A stretch of 29,277 nucleotides of DNA from Acidimicrobiales bacterium (GCA_037724305.1 JBBJOU010000001.1:1-29277), one strand, 5' to 3'. Shown: positions 8,344 through 28,216, counted from the stretch's first letter. The notes: generated from the sequence alone by a model not told the origin. Program-made: numbers and translations.

Positions 8344-9561
8344 GTGATCGTGGACGATGGTGTCGGACCCGCGCGATCCGCTAGAACCGCCGGCGTGCCA
8401 ACACCGGCGGACGACGACCTCTCGGTCGAACGGTTGACGGCGAAGGCGACCCGCATCGCCGGCGTCGGGGACGGGGGGGCCGGCGCCGCTGCGCCGGCAC
8501 TCGAGCTGCTGGTGGGCTCGTGCCGACGAACGGCTGCGCTGAACCCGCTCGGGCGCAAGGTGCTCGCCAGTGCGGTCGTCCGCCACCTGGTGAACCGGTT
8601 GCTGGTCGGCGCCGAGACGGCGGCCCGTCCCGACGTTGCGGCCGGCCCGGTCGGTGCGGCGGTCGTGGTGACGGGGCTCCCCCGCACCGGCACCACGATG
8701 TTGCACAACCTGCTGGCGCTCGACCCGTCGCACCGGGTCGTGCGCCTGTGGCAGGCGCTCCACCCCGTGCCCCCCGACCCGGCACGAGGCGAATCGGAGG
8801 GGGAGTTGGTGCGCCAGGCGGCCACGTGGCTCGAACGGCTGTACGCGGCGGTCCCCTGTTTCCGCAGCATCCACGGCGCCACGCCGGACGGTCCCGAGGA
8901 ATGCGACGCCCTGCTCCAGAACGACTTCGCCAGCCAGCACTTCGACGACATGTTCGACGCGGAGGAGTACTCGGCGTGGTTGGCGACGGCATCGCTGCGC
9001 CAGGAGTACGAGTCCTACGCCCGCCAGCTCGCCCTGCTCGTACGCCCTGACGACGGCGCGACGACGTGGGCCCTGAAGTCGCCGAGCCATCTCGGCCACC
9101 TCGACGACCTCCTGACGGTGAGCCCGCAGGCGACGATCGTGCACTGTCACCGCCACCCGTCCGAGGCGGTGCCGTCCTATGCCAGCCTCGTGCTCTGCCT
9201 GCGCCGCGCCTACAGCGACGATGTCTCCGCGGCGACGGTCGGCCGCCAGGCGTCGGCGCGCAGCGTCGTCGCCCTCGACCGGGCGCTCGACGTGCGGGAG
9301 CGGGCGCCGGCCAACTTCGTCGACGTCGCCTACGCCGATCTCGTGCGCCGCCCGGTCGCCACCGTCGCCGAACTGTACGAGCAGCTCGGTCGCCCGTTCC
9401 CGGCGCCGGTCAGCACCGCCATGGCGCGCTGGGTCACCGACCACCCCCAGCACCAACACGGCGTCCACCGGTACTCGGCCGAGGACTTCGGGCTCAGCGC
9501 CGGCGTCGTCGCCGGGCAGTTCGAGCGGTACCTCGAACAGTTCGCCGACACGGTTCGCTGA
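8344..9561 (+). CDS. PAPS-dependent sulfotransferase (Sulfotransfer_3 / mycobacterial Stf-like)
   Basis: 5'-PSB loop TGLPRTGTT, GPEEC, WALKSPSHL, 3'-PB HRHP...SYASL, and C-terminal HGVHRYS..DFGL. The start may be slightly downstream. Confidence 0.9.
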   Translation: MIVDDGVGPARSARTAGVPTPADDDLSVERLTAKATRIAGVGDGGAGAAAPALELLVGSCRRTAALNPLGRKVLASAVVRHLVNRLLVGAETAARPDVAAGPVGAAVVVTGLPRTGTTMLHNLLALDPSHRVVRLWQALHPVPPDPARGESEGELVRQAATWLERLYAAVPCFRSIHGATPDGPEECDALLQNDFASQHFDDMFDAEEYSAWLATASLRQEYESYARQLALLVRPDDGATTWALKSPSHLGHLDDLLTVSPQATIVHCHRHPSEAVPSYASLVLCLRRAYSDDVSAATVGRQASARSVVALDRALDVRERAPANFVDVAYADLVRRPVATVAELYEQLGRPFPAPVSTAMARWVTDHPQHQHGVHRYSAEDFGLSAGVVAGQFERYLEQFADTVR

Positions 9562-9587: not shown

Positions 9588-11141
9588 TCATTCGACCGAC
9601 CCGGCGGCGCCCGAGCGGAGCACGAACCGTCGCAGCTTCCCTGTGGGCGTGCGGGGCAGCCCGTCGACGAAGGCCACCGACCTCGGCACCTTGAACGGTG
9701 CCAGGCGGGCGCGCGCCAGGGCGGTCAGCTCCTCGGCCAGCGAGTCGTCACCCGAACCGGGAGCCGCCGGTACGACGAACGCTCGCAGGCGCGAGGCACC
9801 GTCGGCGTCGGTGACGGCGACGACCGCGACCTCGGACACGGCGTCATGGCCACCGAGCAGCTCCTCGATCTCGGCGGGGGCGACCGAGATCCCGCCGACC
9901 ATCTCCATGTCGTCGGCGCGCCCGTGCAGCTGGACGAAGCCGTCGGTGCCGACCGACGCCAGGTCCTCGGTGCGAAGCCAACCCTCGTCGTCGGTGGTGG
10001 CGGCGTCGGGGCGCCCGAGGTACTCGAGGAGGACGGTCGGGCCCCGCACCCACAGCGCGCCGACCTCACCCGGCGCCACGGCCGTCGCGTCCCGCCCGCA
10101 GACGGCGAGCTCGTAGGGCGGCAACGCCCGGCCGACGGTGCCGGGTCGAACCGTGTCGGCGGTGTTGCTGGCGAACGTCTGGCCGACCTCGGTGGAACCG
10201 AGACCGTCGAGCACGGGACAGCCGAGCAGACGGGACGCCTGGGTGGCGAGGTCGGTGGTGAGGCGTTCGCCGGCGGACACGGCGACGCGTACCGACCCGA
10301 AGGCGCCGTCCGCCGCCGGTGCGCACTCCCGGACCAGATTGGCGTAGAAGGTGGGAACGGCGAACAGGACACTGACCTGGTGCCGCTCGACGAGCGCGGC
10401 GGTCTCGGCGGGGCGGGGGCGCAACGCCAACAGGACGGCCCGGGCGCCGCACAGCAACGGGAAGAAGAGCGAGTTGCCGAGGCCGTAGGCGAAGTACATC
10501 TTCGACACCGAGTGCACCACGTCGTCGGGGGCGAGGGTGATGGCACCGTGCGCGAACGCCCGGGTGTACACGAGCGGATCGCCATGGCGGTGCACGGCCG
10601 CCTTCGGAGCGCCCGTGGTGCCCGACGTGTACTGGGCGTAGGCCGGCGCCCCGGCGTCGACGGGGACGGCGGGATGGGGGGAGACAAGGGCGAGCGAGCG
10701 GAGCAGCTCGGGGGCGGTGACGACCTGCGGTCCTCCGTCGAACCGGGACCGGAGCTCGTCGCTGCACACCACGACGCCGGCGCCGCTGTCCTTGGCGAGA
10801 CAGAGGTGGTCGTCGGTCGTCAGCTCGGGGTTGACCGGCACGGCCAGCGCGCCGAGGCGGACGGCGCCCAGGAACGACCACACGAACTCGATGCCGTCGG
10901 GGAGGACGATCAGCACGACGTCTCCGCACCCGACACCCAGCCCGGCCAGCACGGCGGCGGCGCGGGCGGCGCCGTCGTGCACCTCGTCGTGGCTCACCGC
11001 GGTGGCCTCGACGAGGAACGCTGTCCTGGCCCCCCACCCCTGCGCTCGGGCGGTGGCCTCGATCGTTGCCGCCAGGTTGTGCCCGGCCCCGGTGGCGACC
11101 GGGTGCGCCCAGGACGCCGGTGCGCCCGTCAGCCGTCCCAC
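9588..11141 (-). CDS. Aryl-acid adenylating ligase, FadD22/benzoate-CoA-ligase-like (probable 4-hydroxybenzoate-AMP/CoA ligase)
   Basis: YTSGTTGAPKAAVHRH, MYFAYGLGNS, LDGLGSTEVGQTFASN, RADDME, FKVP and PRTPTGKL closely follow mycobacterial FadD22 as recalled. It lacks the FadD22 C-terminal carrier domain. In-frame GTG 11141 overlaps the upstream gene by 13 nt. Confidence 0.85.
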   Translation of the reverse strand: MGRLTGAPASWAHPVATGAGHNLAATIEATARAQGWGARTAFLVEATAVSHDEVHDGAARAAAVLAGLGVGCGDVVLIVLPDGIEFVWSFLGAVRLGALAVPVNPELTTDDHLCLAKDSGAGVVVCSDELRSRFDGGPQVVTAPELLRSLALVSPHPAVPVDAGAPAYAQYTSGTTGAPKAAVHRHGDPLVYTRAFAHGAITLAPDDVVHSVSKMYFAYGLGNSLFFPLLCGARAVLLALRPRPAETAALVERHQVSVLFAVPTFYANLVRECAPAADGAFGSVRVAVSAGERLTTDLATQASRLLGCPVLDGLGSTEVGQTFASNTADTVRPGTVGRALPPYELAVCGRDATAVAPGEVGALWVRGPTVLLEYLGRPDAATTDDEGWLRTEDLASVGTDGFVQLHGRADDMEMVGGISVAPAEIEELLGGHDAVSEVAVVAVTDADGASRLRAFVVPAAPGSGDDSLAEELTALARARLAPFKVPRSVAFVDGLPRTPTGKLRRFVLRSGAAGSVE

Positions 11142-11863
11142 GTGCTGCTCACGTCCGGGTAGTCGAGCCCGGCCTCGTCGACCACGAACTGGCGGCTGCG
11201 ATCGATGAACGCCGCCCGGGCCTCGTCGTTGGTGCGGGACTTGATGCCCCAACGTCGGAACGCCTCGTTGTTGGACGAGCGGCTCCGCCCGAAGAACGGG
11301 AGGGTGAACGGGACCAGGTCGTCGACGGCCTGCTGCACGAGCGGCCGGGTGTCGGCGCTCCGGGCCAGGTTCTTGGCCCTGACCTGGCCGAACGAGACGT
11401 GGAACCGCTCCTCGGGGAGCAGCGCCACCGCCAGGTCCCGCAGGGGCAGGTAGGTCGTCTCGAGCAACTCGTCCATCAGGACGACCTCGGCGAGGTCAAC
11501 GATCGCCTTGAGCACGACGAACTCGACCCAGGTGGTCAGCTCGTACTCGAACACCGACAGTGGGGCACCGGTGAGGGCGTCGGGGAGCTCGAGCTCGGTC
11601 GCCAGCTTCTGGAACCGCAGATGGTGCCCGTACTCCTCCATGGCGATGCGGCAGGCCAGCCACTTGTCGCGCGGGGTGGGCGCCAGGCCGATCGCCGGCT
11701 CGTCGAAGATCGCCGCGCCGGTGTACTCGTTGCGCACGTGGCTGGCGATGACCTTGCCCACCGCGCTCACGTAGTCGGCACCGATCTCCCGTGCCTCGGC
11801 CGGGCCCCGCACCTCGCCGGAGAACGGCGCGTCGACGGTCGGGGCCGCGGTCGGCGCACTCAT
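11129..11863 (-). CDS. Stand-alone PaaA-like ferritin-fold diiron protein (aryl-CoA oxygenase family)
   Basis: Likely ligands NEY, EEYGH (11624-11638), VDLA and EERFH (11399-11413), plus PaaA-like WGIKSRTNDEAR. ATG 11863 overlaps the SDR stop (ATGA). Confidence 0.8.
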   Translation of the reverse strand: MSAPTAAPTVDAPFSGEVRGPAEAREIGADYVSAVGKVIASHVRNEYTGAAIFDEPAIGLAPTPRDKWLACRIAMEEYGHHLRFQKLATELELPDALTGAPLSVFEYELTTWVEFVVLKAIVDLAEVVLMDELLETTYLPLRDLAVALLPEERFHVSFGQVRAKNLARSADTRPLVQQAVDDLVPFTLPFFGRSRSSNNEAFRRWGIKSRTNDEARAAFIDRSRQFVVDEAGLDYPDVSSTWDG

Positions 11864-12804
11864 GAGCGCACCCGGCCGGCGACCGCGATCGGCGGGCCCC
11901 CGAAGAGGTCGAACTCCGACTCGAGCGGGGTGAGGTGGTCGGCGAGGGCGCCGGGCGCGGTGGCGGTGAGCGCCGCCGCATCCCAGCCGTGCGCCTCCAC
12001 GAGCTGCGCGATGGGGCGCGGTTGCGACCAGATCCCGATCTCCGCACCGCGGGCGCCGAACACCTGCCCGGTGATGCCGGCGGCGGCGTCGGAGCAGAGC
12101 CAGGCGATCAGCGGGGCGACGTTGTCGGCCGTGGCCCCTCCGGCCGTCCGGAGGTACTCGCGGAGCTGGTCGGTGGCGGGAGGGATCGACTCGGTCATGC
12201 GGGTGAAGGCGAAGGGGGCGACGTAGTTGACGCAGACGTCGCGACCGGCCATCTCCAGGGCGACCGCCCGGGTGAGCCCGAACAGCCCGGCCTTGGCGAC
12301 GGCGTAGGCGGCCTGCCCGACGCTCCCGACCAGCCCGGCCGCGCCCCCCAGGTAGACGATGCGGCCGGCTCGCTGCGAGCGGATGGGCCCGGCCATGGCG
12401 CGGGTGAGCTCGATCGCCACCGCGAGGTGGGAGCCCATCACCTCGGACCAGTCGTCGTCGTCGGCCTTGTGCACCATGGCGTCGCGCAAGGTGCCGGCGC
12501 TGTGCACGAGGACGGTGGGTGCCCGCCCGGACCACGCCGCCGTCGCCGCCACGATCTGCTCGGCACCGGCGCTCGTGCGCCCGTCGGTGACCTCGACCAT
12601 GGCGAGCCCACCGCGACGGCGGATGTCCTCGACCGTCGCTTCCGCCGGCTCGCGGTCGGGGTCACGACCGCCGACCGTGACGCCGGTGTCGTTCACGCAC
12701 ACAGGGTGACCGGCGGCGCCCAGCGCCAAGGCCACGGCCCGCCCGATGCCGCGACCACCCCCGGAGACGACCGCGACCGGGGGCTCGACGGTGTCGCCGG
12801 TCAT
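11860..12804 (-). CDS. Short-chain dehydrogenase/reductase (MFE-2/3-hydroxyacyl-CoA dehydrogenase-like)
   Basis: SGGGRGIG, VNDTG, AGTLRD, YAVAK (YxxxK), VNYVAP and C-terminal TGQVFG. Start at ATG 12804. Confidence 0.9.
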   Translation of the reverse strand: MTGDTVEPPVAVVSGGGRGIGRAVALALGAAGHPVCVNDTGVTVGGRDPDREPAEATVEDIRRRGGLAMVEVTDGRTSAGAEQIVAATAAWSGRAPTVLVHSAGTLRDAMVHKADDDDWSEVMGSHLAVAIELTRAMAGPIRSQRAGRIVYLGGAAGLVGSVGQAAYAVAKAGLFGLTRAVALEMAGRDVCVNYVAPFAFTRMTESIPPATDQLREYLRTAGGATADNVAPLIAWLCSDAAAGITGQVFGARGAEIGIWSQPRPIAQLVEAHGWDAAALTATAPGALADHLTPLESEFDLFGGPPIAVAGRVRS

Positions 12805-12853
12805 CGCTGCTCGAGGGTGCGCTGCCGGGTCCCGGCGTCGCGCTCGCCCACCG

Positions 12854-13480
12854 TCACGCGGCGCCGCGACCGGCGATCGGGGCGAGGTCCGCGACGGACC
12901 GCGTCTTCGCCGCGATGGTGGCGTCGGGCACCCTCTGGCGGATCGGTGCGAAGCCGGACTTGGCGAACTTCTCGGTGATCCGGGCGAAGGGGCGTCCCCC
13001 GGCGACGATCTCGTAGGTGCGGGCGACCAGCGTGTCCGTGGAGGCGATGCCGAGGTGCGCGGCGACAGCGCCGGCCGGTTCTTCCCACACCGCCAGGATG
13101 TGCCGGAGCGTCTCGAACCGGCAGTCGATGAGCAGCTTGCCGATGGGCCGGTCGGTCTCGAGCACACCGTGCTCGACCGATGGCGGCAGCCGGTCGATGA
13201 CAACGATCGACTCGGCGTACACGAACGCCGTCCCGCTGTCGCGACCCTGGAGGAGGATGGTCCGGCGCAGCGCCCGCTCGCCCTCGTCGAGCGTTGGCTC
13301 CACCGGCTCGCCGGCCGCGACGAGCTCGTTGTCGAGCTTGACCAGCTCTACCGGCTCCCCGGCGTAGGCCTCGAGGATGTGGGTCAGCGTGCCGTCCGTC
13401 GTCAACGCGATCCGCCCGACCACGCTCAGCGCCGACACATCCACGATGCCATCCCAATCCATCACCATTTCAGCAGCCAT
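12854..13480 (-). CDS. Chorismate pyruvate-lyase (4-hydroxybenzoate synthase; Rv2949c/DUF98-like)
   Basis: TTDGTLTHILEAY, R..LLQG...FVYAESIV, PIGKLL, ETLR and RTYEI...PFARITEKF. AGGAGG SD at 13496-13491 upstream of ATG 13480. Confidence 0.85.
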   Translation of the reverse strand: MAAEMVMDWDGIVDVSALSVVGRIALTTDGTLTHILEAYAGEPVELVKLDNELVAAGEPVEPTLDEGERALRRTILLQGRDSGTAFVYAESIVVIDRLPPSVEHGVLETDRPIGKLLIDCRFETLRHILAVWEEPAGAVAAHLGIASTDTLVARTYEIVAGGRPFARITEKFAKSGFAPIRQRVPDATIAAKTRSVADLAPIAGRGAA

Positions 13481-16518: not shown

Positions 16519-17850
16519 TCAGGGGGCGATGCGGTTCGGGCCGCGGTGCAGGTAGGTCACCTCGCGCACGTCGTCGATGCCCAGGATCGACATGAGGGCG
16601 CGGGTGAGCCCGAGGCCGAACCCGCCGTGCGGCGGGCAGCCGAACTTGAAGTAGTCGAGGTAGAACTGGATGGGCGGCAGGTCGATGCCGCGGCTGGCGG
16701 CCTGCTCGACGAGGCGCTCGTAACGGTGCTCCCGTTGGGCGCCGGTGGTCACCTCGAGGCCCTTCCACAGCAGGTCGAACCCGCGGGTGGCGGTCGAGCC
16801 GTCCTCGAGGAGCATGTGGTAGAAGGGCCGCACGGCGGCGCCGTACTCGGTCACGAACACGAACTCGTGGCCGTGGGTGGCGGCGACGTGGGCGGCGAGG
16901 AGCTGCTCGCCCTCGCGGTCGATGTCGCCGGGACGGTGCGGGCCGACCCAGCCGCGGCCGCGGAGGATGTCGTAGGCCTCCTCCATGGGGACCCGGGGGA
17001 ACGGGAGCTCGGGGACGTTGACCTCGACCCCGAAGGTCCGCCGGATGTCGTCGCCGTGCTGGTCGGCGACGGCGGCGATCACGTCGCGGAGCCAGCGCTC
17101 CTCCAGCGCCATCACGTCCTCGTGCGAGGAGATCCAGGAGATCTCCATGTCGACGCTGGTGAACTCGGTGTCGTGGCGATCGGTGGCGTGCGGGTTGGCG
17201 CGGAACACCGGGCCGACCTCGAAGACGCGGTCGAACCCGGCCGCCATCGCCATCTGCTTGTGGAACTGCGGTGACTGCGCCAGGTAGGCGGGCCGTCCGA
17301 AGTAGTCGATGGTGAACAGCTCGCGGCCGGACCGGTTGGACACGGCCCGGATCTTGGGCGAGTGCAGTTCGATGCAGCCGTCCGCCTCCCAGAAGGCCCG
17401 CATCGCCCGCTCGGCGGTGGTCTGCACCTCGAACACGAGCCGGGCGGACCGTCGCCGCAGGTCGAGGAAGCGCCAGTCGAGGCGCTCCTCGACCGGCGAG
17501 TGCTCGTCGATGGGCACCTCGGCCACCGCCGGCCCGACCACCCGCACCTCGGCGACGGTGATCTCGGGGCGCCCATCGCCGGACGGGGCGGCGACGACGC
17601 CGACGGCTTCGACGGCCGACTCGGCGACCAGGCCGACGAGCGCGGCGGCGAGCGGCCCGGTGCCCGCCTCGGCGTCGGCCCCGTCGACGAGCGTCACCCG
17701 ACCGCGGCGATCGCGCAGGACGAGCGAGGGGGCGCCGTCGGCGGCGGTCGGTTCCGCCCAGCCGCACACGCGCACCGTCGCACCCGTCCGGTCGGCGAGG
17801 TCGGTCGCCAGCGACCGGGGGAGGGGAGGGGTAGGAGGAGGCGTCGCCAT
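16519..17850 (-). CDS. aspS: Archaeal-type (non-discriminating-like) aspartyl-tRNA synthetase paralog
   Basis: Class II catalytic core: RLDWRFLDLR, YLAQSPQFHKQ, VFEVGPVFRAN, RHDTEFTSVDME, FDLLWKGLEVTTGAQREH and PPHGGFGLGLTR. The N-terminal OB-fold is divergent. ATG 17850 is preferred over 17934. Confidence 0.88.
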   Translation of the reverse strand: MATPPPTPPLPRSLATDLADRTGATVRVCGWAEPTAADGAPSLVLRDRRGRVTLVDGADAEAGTGPLAAALVGLVAESAVEAVGVVAAPSGDGRPEITVAEVRVVGPAVAEVPIDEHSPVEERLDWRFLDLRRRSARLVFEVQTTAERAMRAFWEADGCIELHSPKIRAVSNRSGRELFTIDYFGRPAYLAQSPQFHKQMAMAAGFDRVFEVGPVFRANPHATDRHDTEFTSVDMEISWISSHEDVMALEERWLRDVIAAVADQHGDDIRRTFGVEVNVPELPFPRVPMEEAYDILRGRGWVGPHRPGDIDREGEQLLAAHVAATHGHEFVFVTEYGAAVRPFYHMLLEDGSTATRGFDLLWKGLEVTTGAQREHRYERLVEQAASRGIDLPPIQFYLDYFKFGCPPHGGFGLGLTRALMSILGIDDVREVTYLHRGPNRIAP

Positions 17851-17952
17851 GGTGGAAGTCGTCGTCCCGCCCGCCCCAGGGCACGGCCTCGGGCGGCGGG
17901 AGGCTGGTACGGTACTCGCTCCGTCCGGCGGCACAGGTTGGGGGAGAGAGCC

Positions 17953-24344: not shown

Positions 24345-26372
24345 CTATGCCTCAGCATGGCGCATCGGTCCGGCGGGTTGGGCGGCGAGCGCCACCGCCA
24401 GCATCTCGGGGGTCCGGCACCGGGTGAGCTGCTCGTCGGTGAGGGCCAGGCCGGCCTGACGGGCCTCCGCCAGCGCGGTCAGGAACGAGAAGTCCTGCCA
24501 GTAGATGTCGGTGGTGGACATCGGTTCGCCGCGCGCCTCGCTCCACAGCCCCGCCAGGAGCGTGGCGGCAGGGTCGGGGTCCTCGGCGCCGTGCTCGCCG
24601 GTGGTCGCCATGGCCTCGACGTCGAGGGTGGCGTCGGGACGGCGGTGGAGGGCGTCGACGGTCACGAGCCGGGCGGGCCAGAGCGAGCCCGGGAGCTCCG
24701 CCCAGAGCGCGGCGCGTAGCCCCGAGAGCGTCGGTCGGTCGTCGTCGTCGGCCACGACGAACGCCACCAGTCGGGGGCCGTCGTCCGCGTCGACGACGGC
24801 CACGCCCACGTCCGCCACGTCCGGGCACCGCTCGAGCGCGGCCTCGATGCGGGAGCGTCGGGCCCGGAACCCCCTGAGCTCGACCCGGTCGTCCGCCGGG
24901 AGGACCTCGGGGGAGACGTTGGGAGGCGGGACGGCGGCGGCGATCTCGCTGACGCGCCGGTGGGGGTCGGCGGCGACGGCGGCCAGCAGCGCTTCGAAGT
25001 GCTCGAGCAGCTCGGCGACGACGGGCCGGTCGAACACGCCCCTGGCCACCAGCGCCATCTCGTCGGGGTTGGCGAGCAGGGACAGGATCAGGAACGTGCC
25101 GGCATACGCACCATCGCCCCAGACGGGCGCAGGGCTCGGGTCGCCCTCCGCCTGGTCGTCCTCCCGCGCCCCGGCGCTGAAGTGGCGTTCCCGGCGGGAG
25201 TCGACGGGGGTGTCGTAGCCGGTCGTCCGGATCCCCGGCAACACGAGCTTGGTGGGCTGCGGGGTCTCGCCCTGGAAGACGACGGCGATCTGGGGCACGA
25301 CCCCGTGGGCGGCGGCGGCGGGGCCGAGGGTCTCGGCCACGACGGCCTCGAACGCCGGGTCCTGGTGGGCCATGGCGCCGAGGACGCTGCTGCGGCCGCG
25401 AGCGACCAGCTCCGGGAACGAGGGGTCGTCGTCGAGCGACAACCGGACCAGGATCTTCTTGGTGAAGCAGCCGATCAACGGTTCGAGCTCGGTCCGGTTT
25501 CGGTGGGCCACGACCGAGGCCATGACGAGATCGAGCTGACCGGTGATCCGGGCGACCAGCACCGCGAACGCCGCCAGCGCGGTCATGAACGGGGTCGCCC
25601 GCAGCTCACGAGACAGGGTGCGGAGGCGGGTGGCGAGCTCGTAGGGGAGGTCCCGGCGCACGGGTTCTCCCGACGGCGGGCGTCCCCGGCCGGCCCCGTC
25701 GGGCGCAGCGATCGGGAGCTGCACGCTCAGGGGGGCGCCGGCCAGGTGCGTCCGCCACCACGCCAGCTGCGCCGCTCCCACCTCGCCGGCGACGACGGAC
25801 CGCTCCGTGCGGGCGAAGTCGACGAAGGTCGTGGCCAGCTCGGGGAGGGGCGACGACCGGCCGTCGAGGAACGACGCGTAGAGCGCGGAGAAGTCCTTGC
25901 GGAACACCTCGACCGACCAGTCGTCGAAGACCGTGTGGTGGAGCCGGACGACGAGAACGTGGTCGTCGGTCCCGAGACGCACGAGGCGGGGGACGAACAG
26001 CGGACCGTGGACGAGGTCGAACGGCCGGCTGGACGCGTCGGCGAGGAGGCGGGTCATCTCGGCGTCCCGGGCTTCTTCCGGTCGGTCGGCGAGGTCCGTC
26101 ACGGCCAGCGCGAACGTCCCGGGCTCACCCACGACCTGCCACGGGGTCCCGTCGACGAGCTCGAAGGTCGTGCGCAACGGCTCGTGGCGGCGGATGAGCT
26201 CGGACAACGCGCGCTCCAGGGCGGCGGTGTCGAGCGGGCCCCGGTAGCGGCGGACGAGGCACGGCAGGTTGAAGCTGCCCGGCGAGAACTGCTCATGCCA
26301 GAGCATGGCGTCCTGGGAGATCGCCACTGGGCCGGCCGGCTCTGGGGAGGGGGCCCCGGCCGGGTCGGTCAC
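24345..26372 (-). CDS. NRPS-like protein: condensation domain + isolated A-subdomain + degenerate carrier remnant
   Basis: C domain with RRHEPLRTTF and HHTVFDD (25920-25940). Then ADDRVELRGFR from 24896, RLVAFVV and LPGSLWPAR (A8-A10 region with no A core). Then LWSEARG..., T-like but without GGxS. GTGA overlap with the CoA-transferase stop. Confidence 0.85.
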   Translation of the reverse strand: MTDPAGAPSPEPAGPVAISQDAMLWHEQFSPGSFNLPCLVRRYRGPLDTAALERALSELIRRHEPLRTTFELVDGTPWQVVGEPGTFALAVTDLADRPEEARDAEMTRLLADASSRPFDLVHGPLFVPRLVRLGTDDHVLVVRLHHTVFDDWSVEVFRKDFSALYASFLDGRSSPLPELATTFVDFARTERSVVAGEVGAAQLAWWRTHLAGAPLSVQLPIAAPDGAGRGRPPSGEPVRRDLPYELATRLRTLSRELRATPFMTALAAFAVLVARITGQLDLVMASVVAHRNRTELEPLIGCFTKKILVRLSLDDDPSFPELVARGRSSVLGAMAHQDPAFEAVVAETLGPAAAAHGVVPQIAVVFQGETPQPTKLVLPGIRTTGYDTPVDSRRERHFSAGAREDDQAEGDPSPAPVWGDGAYAGTFLILSLLANPDEMALVARGVFDRPVVAELLEHFEALLAAVAADPHRRVSEIAAAVPPPNVSPEVLPADDRVELRGFRARRSRIEAALERCPDVADVGVAVVDADDGPRLVAFVVADDDDRPTLSGLRAALWAELPGSLWPARLVTVDALHRRPDATLDVEAMATTGEHGAEDPDPAATLLAGLWSEARGEPMSTTDIYWQDFSFLTALAEARQAGLALTDEQLTRCRTPEMLAVALAAQPAGPMRHAEA

Positions 26373-28216
26373 GGCGTGAACGCCCAGGGGGTCGACGGGG
26401 CCCGGCAGCTGGCGGCGAGCGTCTCGAACATCGCCGCCACGGCGGGATCGGTGGTCAGCGCCGCCAGCTCGGTGGTGACTGCTGCGCAGGCGATGCCGGC
26501 CTCGGTGAGGAGCCGCACCACCGCCTCCGAGGATTCGTCACCGATGCGCCCGGCCACCCGCACGTCGAGTGGTGCGCCGGGGCCGTCGAGGTCGAGCTCG
26601 TAGAGCTCGCCCAGCCGGCGTTGCGTCTCCCGGTCGCCGGCATCCACCACGATGAAGCCGTCGCTCGTCGCCACCGGGACGTCGAGGGCGCCCCACACCG
26701 GCCGGCCCCGGCGGCGACCCGGGTCGCCGCCGGCGACGACGCCGTCGAGCACATGGGCCTGCAGCGCCATGGCGCCGGACTGCAACGACGTGCGCACTCG
26801 GGTGCCGCGCCCGTCCAGCGCCTGGCGGTACAACCCGGAGAGCACGCCCTCGCAGGTGACCAGCGCGCCGAGGAAGTCGGTCAGGAGGACACGGCTCGGG
26901 AACGGCGGCTCGTTCTCGGGGTTGATCCCGTAGCCGAGGCCGGTGTGGGCCTGGACGAGGAAATCGGTGCCGATCACCCCGGACGCGCTCGAACCGGGCT
27001 CCCACCCGGCGGCCTCGGTGTAAACGAGCCCCGGGTTGCCCCTCGAGAGGTCGGAAGCGCTCAGGCCCCACTCGGCCGCCTTGCCGGGCCGCCAGTTGTG
27101 CAGGAAGGCGTCGGCGCTCGAGGCGAGCTCGGCGAGCTCCGCCCGTCCGGCGGGGGTGGCGAGGTCGACCTCGATGGTGTGCTTGGCCCGGTTGAAGCAG
27201 AGGAAGAACGAGCCGGTGTCGCCGGCGAGCGGCGGCACCCCCCGGCCCACGTCGCCGCCGGGTGACTCGACCCGGGTGACGTGAGCGCCGAGCATCTGGA
27301 GCAGCAGGCCGGCCAGTGGTCCCTGGAGGCGGCTCGTCGCCTCCACCACCCGCAACCCGGCGAGGGGCAGGTCGTCACCGGGCCCGCCGTCGGCGATCGG
27401 CGCGACCGCGGGAGGGCCGCCGGCACCGTCGCCGGCCGGAAGGAGCGCGTCGACGAGCGGGTGGCCCCCCGACGGTGCTCCCTCGGCCAGCACCTCGTCG
27501 TAGTCGCGGACGAGGCTGAGGCTGACCCCGCACTCGCTGGCCACGCCGGTGACCGCCTCGAGGGTGACGGCGGCGGTCGCCTCGTGGAAGCCGACGGGCG
27601 TCGACGAGGTGCCCCTGTAGTAGCGGGGCCGGAACTGCGTCCACGCCCGGCCGATCTCGGCCTCGGGTGCGCCGAGGCGCAGCCAGAACGCCTTCCACGC
27701 CTCGGGGTCGAAGGTCTCGATCTCGAACCAGCGACCGTCGGCGGTGGCGAACGGCGGCCCGGGCGCCGGGTTCGGCGCCGGCCACCAGTCCTGCGGGCAC
27801 GTCGCCGCCGCCAGGTAGTGCGACGCCTGGAACAGGCCGGCCTGCAGCACCGAGGTGTGGACGGTGCTGGTCGAGCGGCCCCGCCGCCCGCCGATGGCCA
27901 TGGCGAGCATCGCCTGGGCGGCGAACATCCCGGCCGCCACCGAGGCGACCTCCACCCCGATGCGCCGGGGCCCGCCGTGATCGCGCCCGTGGAGGTGCAT
28001 CAGCCCCGTCGCCGCCTGCACCAGGGCCTCGCTGCCGGCCTGGTCCGGCGGTCGTGCCGACCCCCACCAGGAGATCTCGCACGACACCGGCCGGTCGGCG
28101 CCGGCGCCGTCCGGCCAGGTGACGACGCCGGTCGCCCCGGTGCTCGTCTCCGGGCGGGCGCCGAGCGCCGCCAACCGCCGCACGCAGGTCTGCACCGCCA
28201 ACTCCGGTCCCGTCAC
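26369..28216 (-). CDS. Tandem-domain family III (CaiB/BaiF) CoA-transferase
   Basis: Second half has PLAGLRVVE, MLGAHVTRVESP, FNRAK, ADAFLHNWRPG and LLTDFLG. First half has SEALVQAATGLM...ASVAAG and DGRWFE. GGAGG SD 5 nt before GTG 28216. Confidence 0.88.
   Translation of the reverse strand: MTGPELAVQTCVRRLAALGARPETSTGATGVVTWPDGAGADRPVSCEISWWGSARPPDQAGSEALVQAATGLMHLHGRDHGGPRRIGVEVASVAAGMFAAQAMLAMAIGGRRGRSTSTVHTSVLQAGLFQASHYLAAATCPQDWWPAPNPAPGPPFATADGRWFEIETFDPEAWKAFWLRLGAPEAEIGRAWTQFRPRYYRGTSSTPVGFHEATAAVTLEAVTGVASECGVSLSLVRDYDEVLAEGAPSGGHPLVDALLPAGDGAGGPPAVAPIADGGPGDDLPLAGLRVVEATSRLQGPLAGLLLQMLGAHVTRVESPGGDVGRGVPPLAGDTGSFFLCFNRAKHTIEVDLATPAGRAELAELASSADAFLHNWRPGKAAEWGLSASDLSRGNPGLVYTEAAGWEPGSSASGVIGTDFLVQAHTGLGYGINPENEPPFPSRVLLTDFLGALVTCEGVLSGLYRQALDGRGTRVRTSLQSGAMALQAHVLDGVVAGGDPGRRRGRPVWGALDVPVATSDGFIVVDAGDRETQRRLGELYELDLDGPGAPLDVRVAGRIGDESSEAVVRLLTEAGIACAAVTTELAALTTDPAVAAMFETLAASCRAPSTPWAFTP

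Follow-up and report, generated by a model that had tools for sequence, protein, structure and literature searches.

A short PaaA-like diiron protein in a putative aryl-CoA operon of a predicted biosynthetic cluster in Acidimicrobiales

We analysed a stretch of 29,277 nucleotides from an Acidimicrobiales bacterium (GCA_037724305.1 JBBJOU010000001.1:1-29277), the whole of which is referred to below as the window, with a focus on four co-oriented minus-strand genes that together fill exactly positions 9588-13480 (Table 1). The window has a G+C content of 72%, and genuine genes were chosen by third-position G+C (GC3 frame analysis) and identified with Pfam: a member of the Rv2949c-like chorismate pyruvate-lyase family, a short-chain dehydrogenase/reductase (SDR), a predicted diiron oxygenase related to PaaA and an aryl-coenzyme A (CoA) ligase. 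PaaA is the catalytic subunit of the phenylacetyl-CoA 1,2-epoxidase PaaABC(D)E. A GGAGG sequence precedes the ATG of the lyase-like gene, which lies 49 nt from the SDR gene; the other three genes overlap, with an ATGA common to the stop of the SDR gene and the start of the PaaA-like gene, and with the ligase gene starting 13 nt within the latter at a GTG that is the sole canonical start near the frame switch. The original prediction for this locus, made from the sequence alone, had the coordinates, gene identities, orientation and overlaps all right. It also placed a catabolic-type oxygenase in a biosynthetic role, and it is this role of the diiron protein that we examine here.

Table 1. Operon genes, predicted diiron ligands, gene X of related contigs (see text) and two context genes; positions refer to the window unless a contig is named
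Feature	Position	Strand	Evidence or remark
Rv2949c-like (DUF98) chorismate pyruvate-lyase family, 208 aa	12854..13480	-	PF01947, 49.8 bits (cut-off 22)
SDR, NAD-type, 314 aa, C-terminal extension	11860..12804	-	Pfam adh_short, adh_short_C2
PaaA-type diiron oxygenase (predicted), 244 aa	11129..11863	-	PF05138, 67.1 bits (cut-off 28.5), residues 31-239
Aryl-CoA ligase (AMP-binding), 517 aa	9588..11141	-	Pfam and NCBIfam
Ligand E46 codon	11726..11728	-	aligned to first Glu ligand of PaaA; translation checked
First ExxH, E77-Y-G-H80	11624..11635	-	alignment with PaaA, homolog alignment, translation
Ligand D123 codon	11495..11497	-	alignment with PaaA, homolog alignment, translation
Second ExxH, E152-R-F-H155	11399..11410	-	alignment with PaaA, homolog alignment, translation
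Gene X	L004:10714-11415; L002:10933-11382; L023:10725-11417; L024:3540-4157; L025:10939-11427; L016:19117-19503	(-) for L016	
Sulfotransferase (PF13469), context gene	8344..9561	+	conserved neighbour of the SDR/PaaA-like pair in relatives
Family III CoA-transferase, double-length, context gene	26369..28216	-	in relatives it follows the PaaA-like gene, one or a few genes away

The diiron protein retains a complete set of iron ligands. Its residues E46, E77-x-x-H80, D123 and E152-x-x-H155 match the E, ExxH, D and ExxH ligands of Escherichia coli PaaA in a pairwise alignment, as had been claimed, and these six positions are invariant or nearly so across an alignment of 31 homologs and kept in every close homolog; the protein also retains about 90 near-invariant positions of the family. 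Its assignment to the catalytic PaaA type, rather than to PaaC, likewise holds, since the family profile ranks PaaA first among solved structures (108 bits, followed by SSO1313 (4MUD) with 74, BoxB with 33 over 73 residues and PaaC with about 19) and PaaA is the best fold match. The AlphaFold2 model (predicted local distance difference test score of 95.6) matched PaaA best in Foldseek, with a template modelling (TM) score of 0.80, a root-mean-square deviation of 1.7 A and 28% identity, then 4MUD, PaaC and BoxB; close matches to the fold among reviewed (Swiss-Prot) proteins were confined to PaaA, PaaC and BoxB. With intact ligands and a score of 22.7 against the PaaC model TIGR02158 (cut-off 133), it is not to be classed as PaaC, nor as BoxB, which is about 470 aa long as against 244 aa and gives a TM score by hit of 0.38.

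Nevertheless, the protein is, judged by its sequence, not a PaaA ortholog: it scores 61 bits with the PaaA equivalog model TIGR02156, far below the cut-off of 280, it is 65 residues shorter, and Ile73 stands in place of Lys68 of PaaA. A phylogeny had been named in the original prediction as a way to place it, and in our maximum-likelihood tree the protein and its relatives form a clade of their own (Shimodaira-Hasegawa-like approximate likelihood ratio test support of 97), apart from canonical PaaA (100) and PaaC (100). Beyond the close relatives lies a large, apparently uncharacterised radiation of PaaA-like proteins about 240 aa long (P0148-P0270), with the full E/ExxH/D/ExxH set and without the Lys68 of PaaA. 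Another branch of the same radiation is represented by two short PaaA-like paralogs about 3 kb apart on one Acidimicrobiales contig (L008 and L015 on G234:C189), one with the full ligand set and the other with Asp for the first Glu. In P0127, which is 38% identical to the window's protein, two iron ligands are lost (E77 to A and E152 to Q), and the gene just upstream, which overlaps its start (L033:1-1027), has at its end the motif CQAGMCGECRC of plant-type 2Fe-2S ferredoxins; by its gene content this locus may represent a multicomponent variant of the system.

The three other products of the operon bear on the likely substrate of the oxygenase. The ligase had been described as FadD22-like, and this stands for its adenylation part: it scores 439.7 bits with the FadD22 model (cut-off 1228), covering only positions 4-489 of 705. 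On the other hand, Pfam finds no PP-binding (carrier) domain in it, its best matches in the PDB are the benzoate-CoA ligases 2V7B and 4EAT, and it reaches 358 bits with the benzoate-CoA ligase family (TIGR02262, cut-off 375). Because it lacks a carrier domain and has benzoate-CoA ligases as its best solved relatives, its product, which would be the substrate of the oxygenase, is likely a CoA thioester and not a carrier-bound ester. The SDR most resembles the (3R)-hydroxyacyl-CoA dehydrogenase domains of MFE-2 (best PDB matches 2ET6 with 196 bits, then 1GZ6 and 1ZBQ), and its motifs, SGGGRGIG, VNDTG (Asp-type NAD) and an intact YxxxK (Y167-AVA-K), together with this likeness suggest an NAD-dependent reaction with a beta-hydroxy CoA ester as substrate. 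As for the lyase-like protein, its sole solved relative is the unannotated 2NWI (E 1.8e-15); its putative chorismate lyase activity follows from PF01947 membership, and it is the presumed source of 4-hydroxybenzoate.

Two metagenomic proteins of 522-524 aa (P0275 and P0276) consist of an Rv2949c-like domain fused to an MFE-2-like SDR through a Pro/Ser/Gly-rich linker, and these independent fusions, as far as domain composition tells, tie the lyase-like protein and the SDR together functionally. A fusion-bearing contig also encodes a second, separate Rv2949c-like gene. The source genome, too, has a second Rv2949c-like gene (L028, G000:C75, 4994-7215, minus strand), directly downstream of an animal-haem-peroxidase-like gene and near genes for a TauE sulfite exporter and a phytoene/squalene synthase.

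An important aspect of the locus is its conservation. The diiron protein has 482 homologs in a large protein collection, the best 120 of which are 65-85% identical to it, and the few homologs with a labelled source come from Acidimicrobiales metagenome-assembled genomes (MAGs). Among 200 evenly sampled genomes of the class, no PaaA-like protein was found at E<=1e-20, and a close ortholog was present in one of 60 relatives (G245); the family is patchy in reference genomes and frequent in metagenomes. The neighbourhood recurs on long contigs of several Acidimicrobiales, at 50-78% identity and in shuffled order. It comprises a sulfotransferase, the SDR, the PaaA-like protein, the double-length family III CoA-transferase, a second acyl-CoA ligase, a class III aminotransferase and a VOC protein; an adenylation-thiolation (A-T) protein, an adenylation-thiolation-condensation (A-T-C) nonribosomal peptide synthetase (NRPS) and a condensation (C)-domain protein; and an MBL-fold hydrolase, an aspartyl-tRNA synthetase (AspRS) paralog, GT1 glycosyltransferases, YtkA and an ABC exporter. 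From this gene content the cluster is a conserved biosynthetic one of NRPS type, and not a catabolic island, in agreement with the biosynthetic setting that had been proposed.

Two members of the cluster have features of their own. The CoA-transferase of the window is about 615 aa long, roughly twice the usual length, with a Pfam match in its C-terminal half only. The AspRS paralog (16519-17934, minus strand) is kept in all related clusters at 56-61% identity and scores 401 bits with the aspartate-tRNA(Asn) ligase model (cut-off 353); from its relationship it might serve as a resistance copy or in amide formation.

Within this cluster, the SDR and the oxygenase are closely associated. With the single exception of L024, all subfamily contexts have the SDR gene immediately upstream of the oxygenase gene, the adjacency holds in a 48%-identical relative with an unrelated neighbourhood, and at least 20 contigs are apparently shared between the homolog lists of the two proteins. 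The contigs of the distant relatives P0131, P0144 and P0148 are too short for context. The exceptional contig (L024:2833-7872) carries P0121, a relative of the oxygenase with 59% identity, together with an NRPS, gene X (see below), an ortholog of the ligase (54% identical) and a fused PabAB; neither a lyase-like gene nor an MFE-2-like SDR is found on it. The PabAB is a fusion of glutamine amidotransferase and chorismate-binding domains (aminodeoxychorismate synthase) that exceeds the pabB equivalog cut-off, and it replaces the lyase, which suggests a 4-aminobenzoyl-CoA version of the module. The constant theme would then be an oxygenase and an aryl-CoA ligase beside an enzyme that turns chorismate into a para-substituted benzoate, and the comparison of these gene neighbourhoods supports it. 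The proposal that the substrate is a chorismate-derived, para-substituted benzoate is thus backed by the oxygenase-ligase pair beside PabAB.

In six of the eight subfamily contexts, the window counted, the oxygenase gene is directly followed by a gene that we call X (L002/L003, L004/L005, L023, L024, L025 and G245). The description of the diiron enzyme as lone therefore applies to the source genome and not to the family. X is 128-233 aa long, with a conserved core of about 130 aa that ends in a WP-I/V-GP motif, and none of its 114 homologs is annotated. Searches for related families or folds gave no match in Pfam even at E 10, none in Atlas, and, with a confident model, none in the PDB by Foldseek and only uncharacterised proteins among the AFDB clusters; the best VIA-align result, a helical immunity protein with Z 9.8, is within the range expected of helical bundles. 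When the cognate oxygenase and X of L004 were submitted to complex prediction, the pair scored 0.86 and the best control 0.02. Of 80 solved complexes, 58 attain this mark, against two of 110 mismatched pairs; the calibration is rough here because our own alignments were used. The prediction supports binding of X to the oxygenase, through an interface on the oxygenase helices that bear E77/H80 and E152, including the invariant stretch K-W-L-x-C-R-x-A-M-E-x-Y-G-x-H-L. Docked in the model over the ligand-bearing helices, X could have a role similar to that of effector proteins in multicomponent monooxygenases.

X itself was found nowhere in the assembled source genome, whether by tblastn against the window, by searching the proteins of the MAG or by running a profile over its open reading frames (ORFs) in all six frames. 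It is absent as well from the contig of P0013, which has the same gene order as the window, and in the X-less operon the oxygenase and ligase genes overlap. From this distribution, the lone oxygenase looks like a derived state in the family.

The canonical partners of PaaA were also sought. Every sizeable ORF of the window was assigned, and none encodes PaaB, PaaC, PaaD, PaaE, a ferredoxin or a reductase, just as the original prediction had stated. In the whole MAG (2.47 Mb, 79% complete), this gene is the only match to PF05138, and PaaB (PF06243) and the PaaE-type NAD_binding_1 have zero matches, PaaD not being among the families searched; Fer2 matches occur on other contigs only. Given the completeness of 79%, this search is not proof that the partners are absent from the genome. 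In G245, which is 97% complete, a 64%-identical ortholog is the sole PF05138 gene. A paa operon elsewhere that uses the protein as a subunit was thus found neither in the source MAG nor in this more complete relative.

Taken together, we consider it an even bet, on the strength of gene content and family relationships, that the operon supplies a conserved Acidimicrobiales natural product of NRPS type with a building block in the form of an oxygenated aryl-CoA. The Rv2949c-like enzyme would convert chorismate to 4-hydroxybenzoate, as its family membership suggests, and the carrier-less ligase of benzoate-CoA-ligase type would activate this to 4-hydroxybenzoyl-CoA. The 244-aa protein, with a carboxylate-bridged diiron site, O2 and two electrons, would then oxygenate the CoA-bound ring. 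PaaA and BoxB put oxygen on the carbons beta and gamma to the thioester, and by analogy the attack would fall on the same ring carbons here; on chemical grounds, a 2,3-arene oxide of the 4-hydroxy ring should open toward 3,4-dihydroxybenzoyl-CoA. The MFE-2-like SDR would use a non-aromatic beta-hydroxy (2-hydroxy) thioester, either re-aromatising it to a catechol or pyrogallol or fixing the keto form. Electrons would come from a housekeeping ferredoxin system, since no donor is encoded nearby, and the enzyme of this lineage would work without PaaB, PaaC, PaaD and PaaE and without X. The product would be handed to the C domains, A-T proteins, glycosyltransferases and sulfotransferase of the cluster. 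More speculatively, a catechol-type unit would fit the metal-related genes of the cluster (YtkA, DUF305, NosD-like).

A bolder extension of this reading is that the short PaaA-like clade constitutes a new two- or three-component aryl-CoA oxygenase, composed of the diiron subunit, the MFE-2-like dehydrogenase and, in most lineages, X. The benzoyl-CoA unit made by such a system, polyhydroxylated or dearomatised, would go into a metallophore-like compound of uncultured Acidimicrobiales that is both sulfated and glycosylated. We hold this extension to be tentative, with its chances well on the lower side.

Several observations weigh against the proposed aryl-CoA pathway. Lys68 of PaaA is catalytically important, and with Ile73 at its place the pocket differs from that of PaaA. 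Lys68 and Glu49 are the PaaA pocket residues mutated in PDB 4II4; in a phmmer pairwise alignment Glu49 pairs with Asp54 of the window's protein, and in the multiple alignment PaaA has a gap at position 54, with Ile73 confirmed. No electron donor was identified, and none is encoded near the oxygenase gene. The surface onto which X is predicted to dock is identical in the window's protein, even though X is absent here; alternatively, X may be encoded in the 21% of the source genome that is not assembled. Three contexts (L002, L004 and L023) have no FadD22-like ligase within 10 kb of the oxygenase but an adjacent CoA-transferase or different ligase (of fatty-acyl type), and in related contexts the lyase-like gene is not always close by. 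Given these missing genes, the link to 4-hydroxybenzoate is not universal among the oxygenases of this subfamily. The lyase-SDR fusions could mean that the SDR uses a chorismate-derived acid and not the oxygenase product, and the PabAB relative does without an MFE-2-like SDR, which weakens the notion of the SDR as obligatory for the oxygenase; judged by these gene arrangements, the SDR may serve the lyase side.

These last points lead to an alternative in which the lyase-like protein and the SDR follow the logic of EntB and EntA, turning chorismate into dihydroxybenzoate by removal of the enolpyruvyl group and subsequent NAD-dependent dehydrogenation, while the diiron enzyme uses another thioester, for example an acyl-CoA supplied by the second ligase or the CoA-transferase. 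The two natural fusions would be explained in this way, as would the contexts in which the FadD22-like ligase is absent near the SDR-oxygenase pair and a CoA-transferase or fatty-acyl-type ligase adjoins it, and the presence of the oxygenase without this SDR beside PabAB. We nonetheless judge the scheme to be unlikely, for the nearest characterised relatives of the SDR use CoA esters and not free acids, known PF01947 members yield 4-hydroxybenzoate directly (as established for Rv2949c), and the pairing of oxygenase and ligase persists, at 59% and 54% identity, beside a different chorismate enzyme.

Similarly improbable is a route by dearomatisation, an option already raised in the original prediction, in which the oxygenase forms a 2,3-epoxide of 4-hydroxybenzoyl-CoA, this turns into a keto form, and the SDR locks the ring in a non-aromatic state, as an epoxy-ketone, a keto-ol or a beta-keto ring, for use as the building block. 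It draws on the fact that PaaA and BoxB are epoxidases, on the membership of the SDR in the beta-hydroxyacyl-CoA dehydrogenase type, and on the tight coupling of the SDR and oxygenase genes through the ATGA overlap and their conserved adjacency. The VNDTG motif, however, is typical of oxidative MFE-2 and fits a re-aromatising dehydrogenation at least as well as a reduction, and the cluster holds no hydratase, isomerase or ring-cleaving enzyme of Box or Paa type.

Hydroxylation with an NIH shift to gentisyl-CoA, as for PhgA, was among the outcomes favoured at the outset, and nothing in our analysis speaks for it over the others. PhgABC are documented to turn 4-hydroxybenzoate into gentisate in a CoA-dependent manner (Zhao et al. 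2018, as reported in a citing paper), with PhgC as the ligase, PhgA as the 1-hydroxylase and PhgB as the thioesterase, and the citing paper assigns PhgA to no family. A relationship between PhgA and PaaA was not confirmed in the literature searched, including reviews, which were uninformative on this point. Swiss-Prot fold matches of the diiron protein include no PhgA-like protein, the window contains no hotdog gene of the gentisyl-CoA thioesterase type, and an ipso attack is not the chemistry of PaaA and BoxB, all of which makes this route very improbable for the window. Least probable of all is that the protein is no oxygenase in this genome but a remnant or a structural or iron-binding protein, inactive without X and a reductase, which are missing from the operon and assembled MAG (X even by profile search) and from the vicinity, respectively, since the protein retains the six ligands together with about 90 nearly invariant positions, coding GC3 is strong, translational coupling exists on both sides and the X-less gene order recurs in the P0013 contig.

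The proposed oxygenation of an aryl-CoA ester before its incorporation is best compared with known systems that share parts of it. The idea of a catabolic-type oxygenase used in biosynthesis, which the original prediction had put forward as an inference, fits the cluster and is at the same time not without precedent. In cystobactamid biosynthesis, CysL is assumed to make the CoA ester of p-aminobenzoate (pABA), and the BoxB homolog CysC is assumed to hydroxylate pABA-CoA to 3-hydroxy- and 2,3-dihydroxy-pABA before NRPS loading; deletion of cysC abolishes cystobactamid production, and the CysC step has not been reconstituted (PMC7966384). Related genes occur in albicidin biosynthesis (PMC7966384). 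As in that system, a chorismate-derived para-substituted benzoate would be converted to a CoA ester and passed to a diiron oxygenase ahead of an NRPS, with all elements encoded in the window, and the related contig with PabAB mirrors the cystobactamid logic even more closely. The two differ, in a comparison by description, in that CysC is BoxB-like and the window's protein is PaaA-like and half the size, and in that no MFE-2-like SDR, lyase fusion or X is reported for cystobactamid.

PaaA of the E. coli complex (3PVR, 3PW1, 4IIT) has in common with the window's protein the Pfam family, the fold, the six-residue ligand set and an acyl-CoA substrate, the last implied here by the neighbouring ligase, and it differs in its length of 309 aa (the C-terminal part is missing here), its separate clade and its catabolic context. 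BoxB, the benzoyl-CoA 2,3-epoxidase of Aromatoleum evansii (3PER, 3PM5), is likewise a diiron aryl-CoA oxygenase without PaaB- or PaaC-like subunits, but it is a distant match (33 bits as given above; TM score 0.68 over a 473-aa protein), relies on BoxA as its dedicated reductase and supplies a pathway that cleaves the ring. SSO1313 of Sulfolobus solfataricus (4MUD) is a short PaaA-like protein of similar length that matches the family profile with 74 bits and the model with a TM score of 0.80; it is only 19% identical and is a structural-genomics entry without an assigned function. For the front part of the pathway, the closest parallel is the mycobacterial Rv2949c/FadD22 module for phenolic glycolipids and p-hydroxybenzoic acid derivatives (p-HBAD), in which a PF01947 lyase is found beside an enzyme that activates p-hydroxybenzoate, with GT1 glycosyltransferases near. 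FadD22, however, has its own aryl carrier domain, which the window's ligase lacks, and feeds a polyketide synthase, and the mycobacterial module has no diiron oxygenase or SDR. Literature searches for biosynthetic enzymes described as PaaA-like or as PaaA homologs, and for hydroxylases that form dihydroxybenzoyl-CoA, returned nothing relevant.

To our knowledge, PaaA and BoxB are the only PaaA/BoxB-type aryl-CoA oxygenases that have been characterised biochemically, and both are catabolic and need dedicated partners. Recruitment of a catabolic-type aryl-CoA diiron oxygenase into biosynthesis is an idea already known, if not reconstituted; the novelty here lies in an enzyme of PaaA type that is far smaller and falls in a clade of its own, in its association with an MFE-2-like dehydrogenase, in the fusions of lyase and SDR, in the orphan protein X, and in a host cluster that comes from uncultured Acidimicrobiales. 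If the proposed pathway is true, a minimal, 244-aa biosynthetic version would extend what ferritin-like diiron enzymes are known to catalyse; its own accessory proteins would be an MFE-2-like dehydrogenase, joined in relatives by an orphan protein that binds it. A biochemical footing would likewise be provided for the ring hydroxylation of aryl-CoA esters that is assumed for enzymes of the CysC type in antibiotic pathways. Finally, it would open up a conserved and unstudied natural-product cluster of uncultured Acidimicrobiales.

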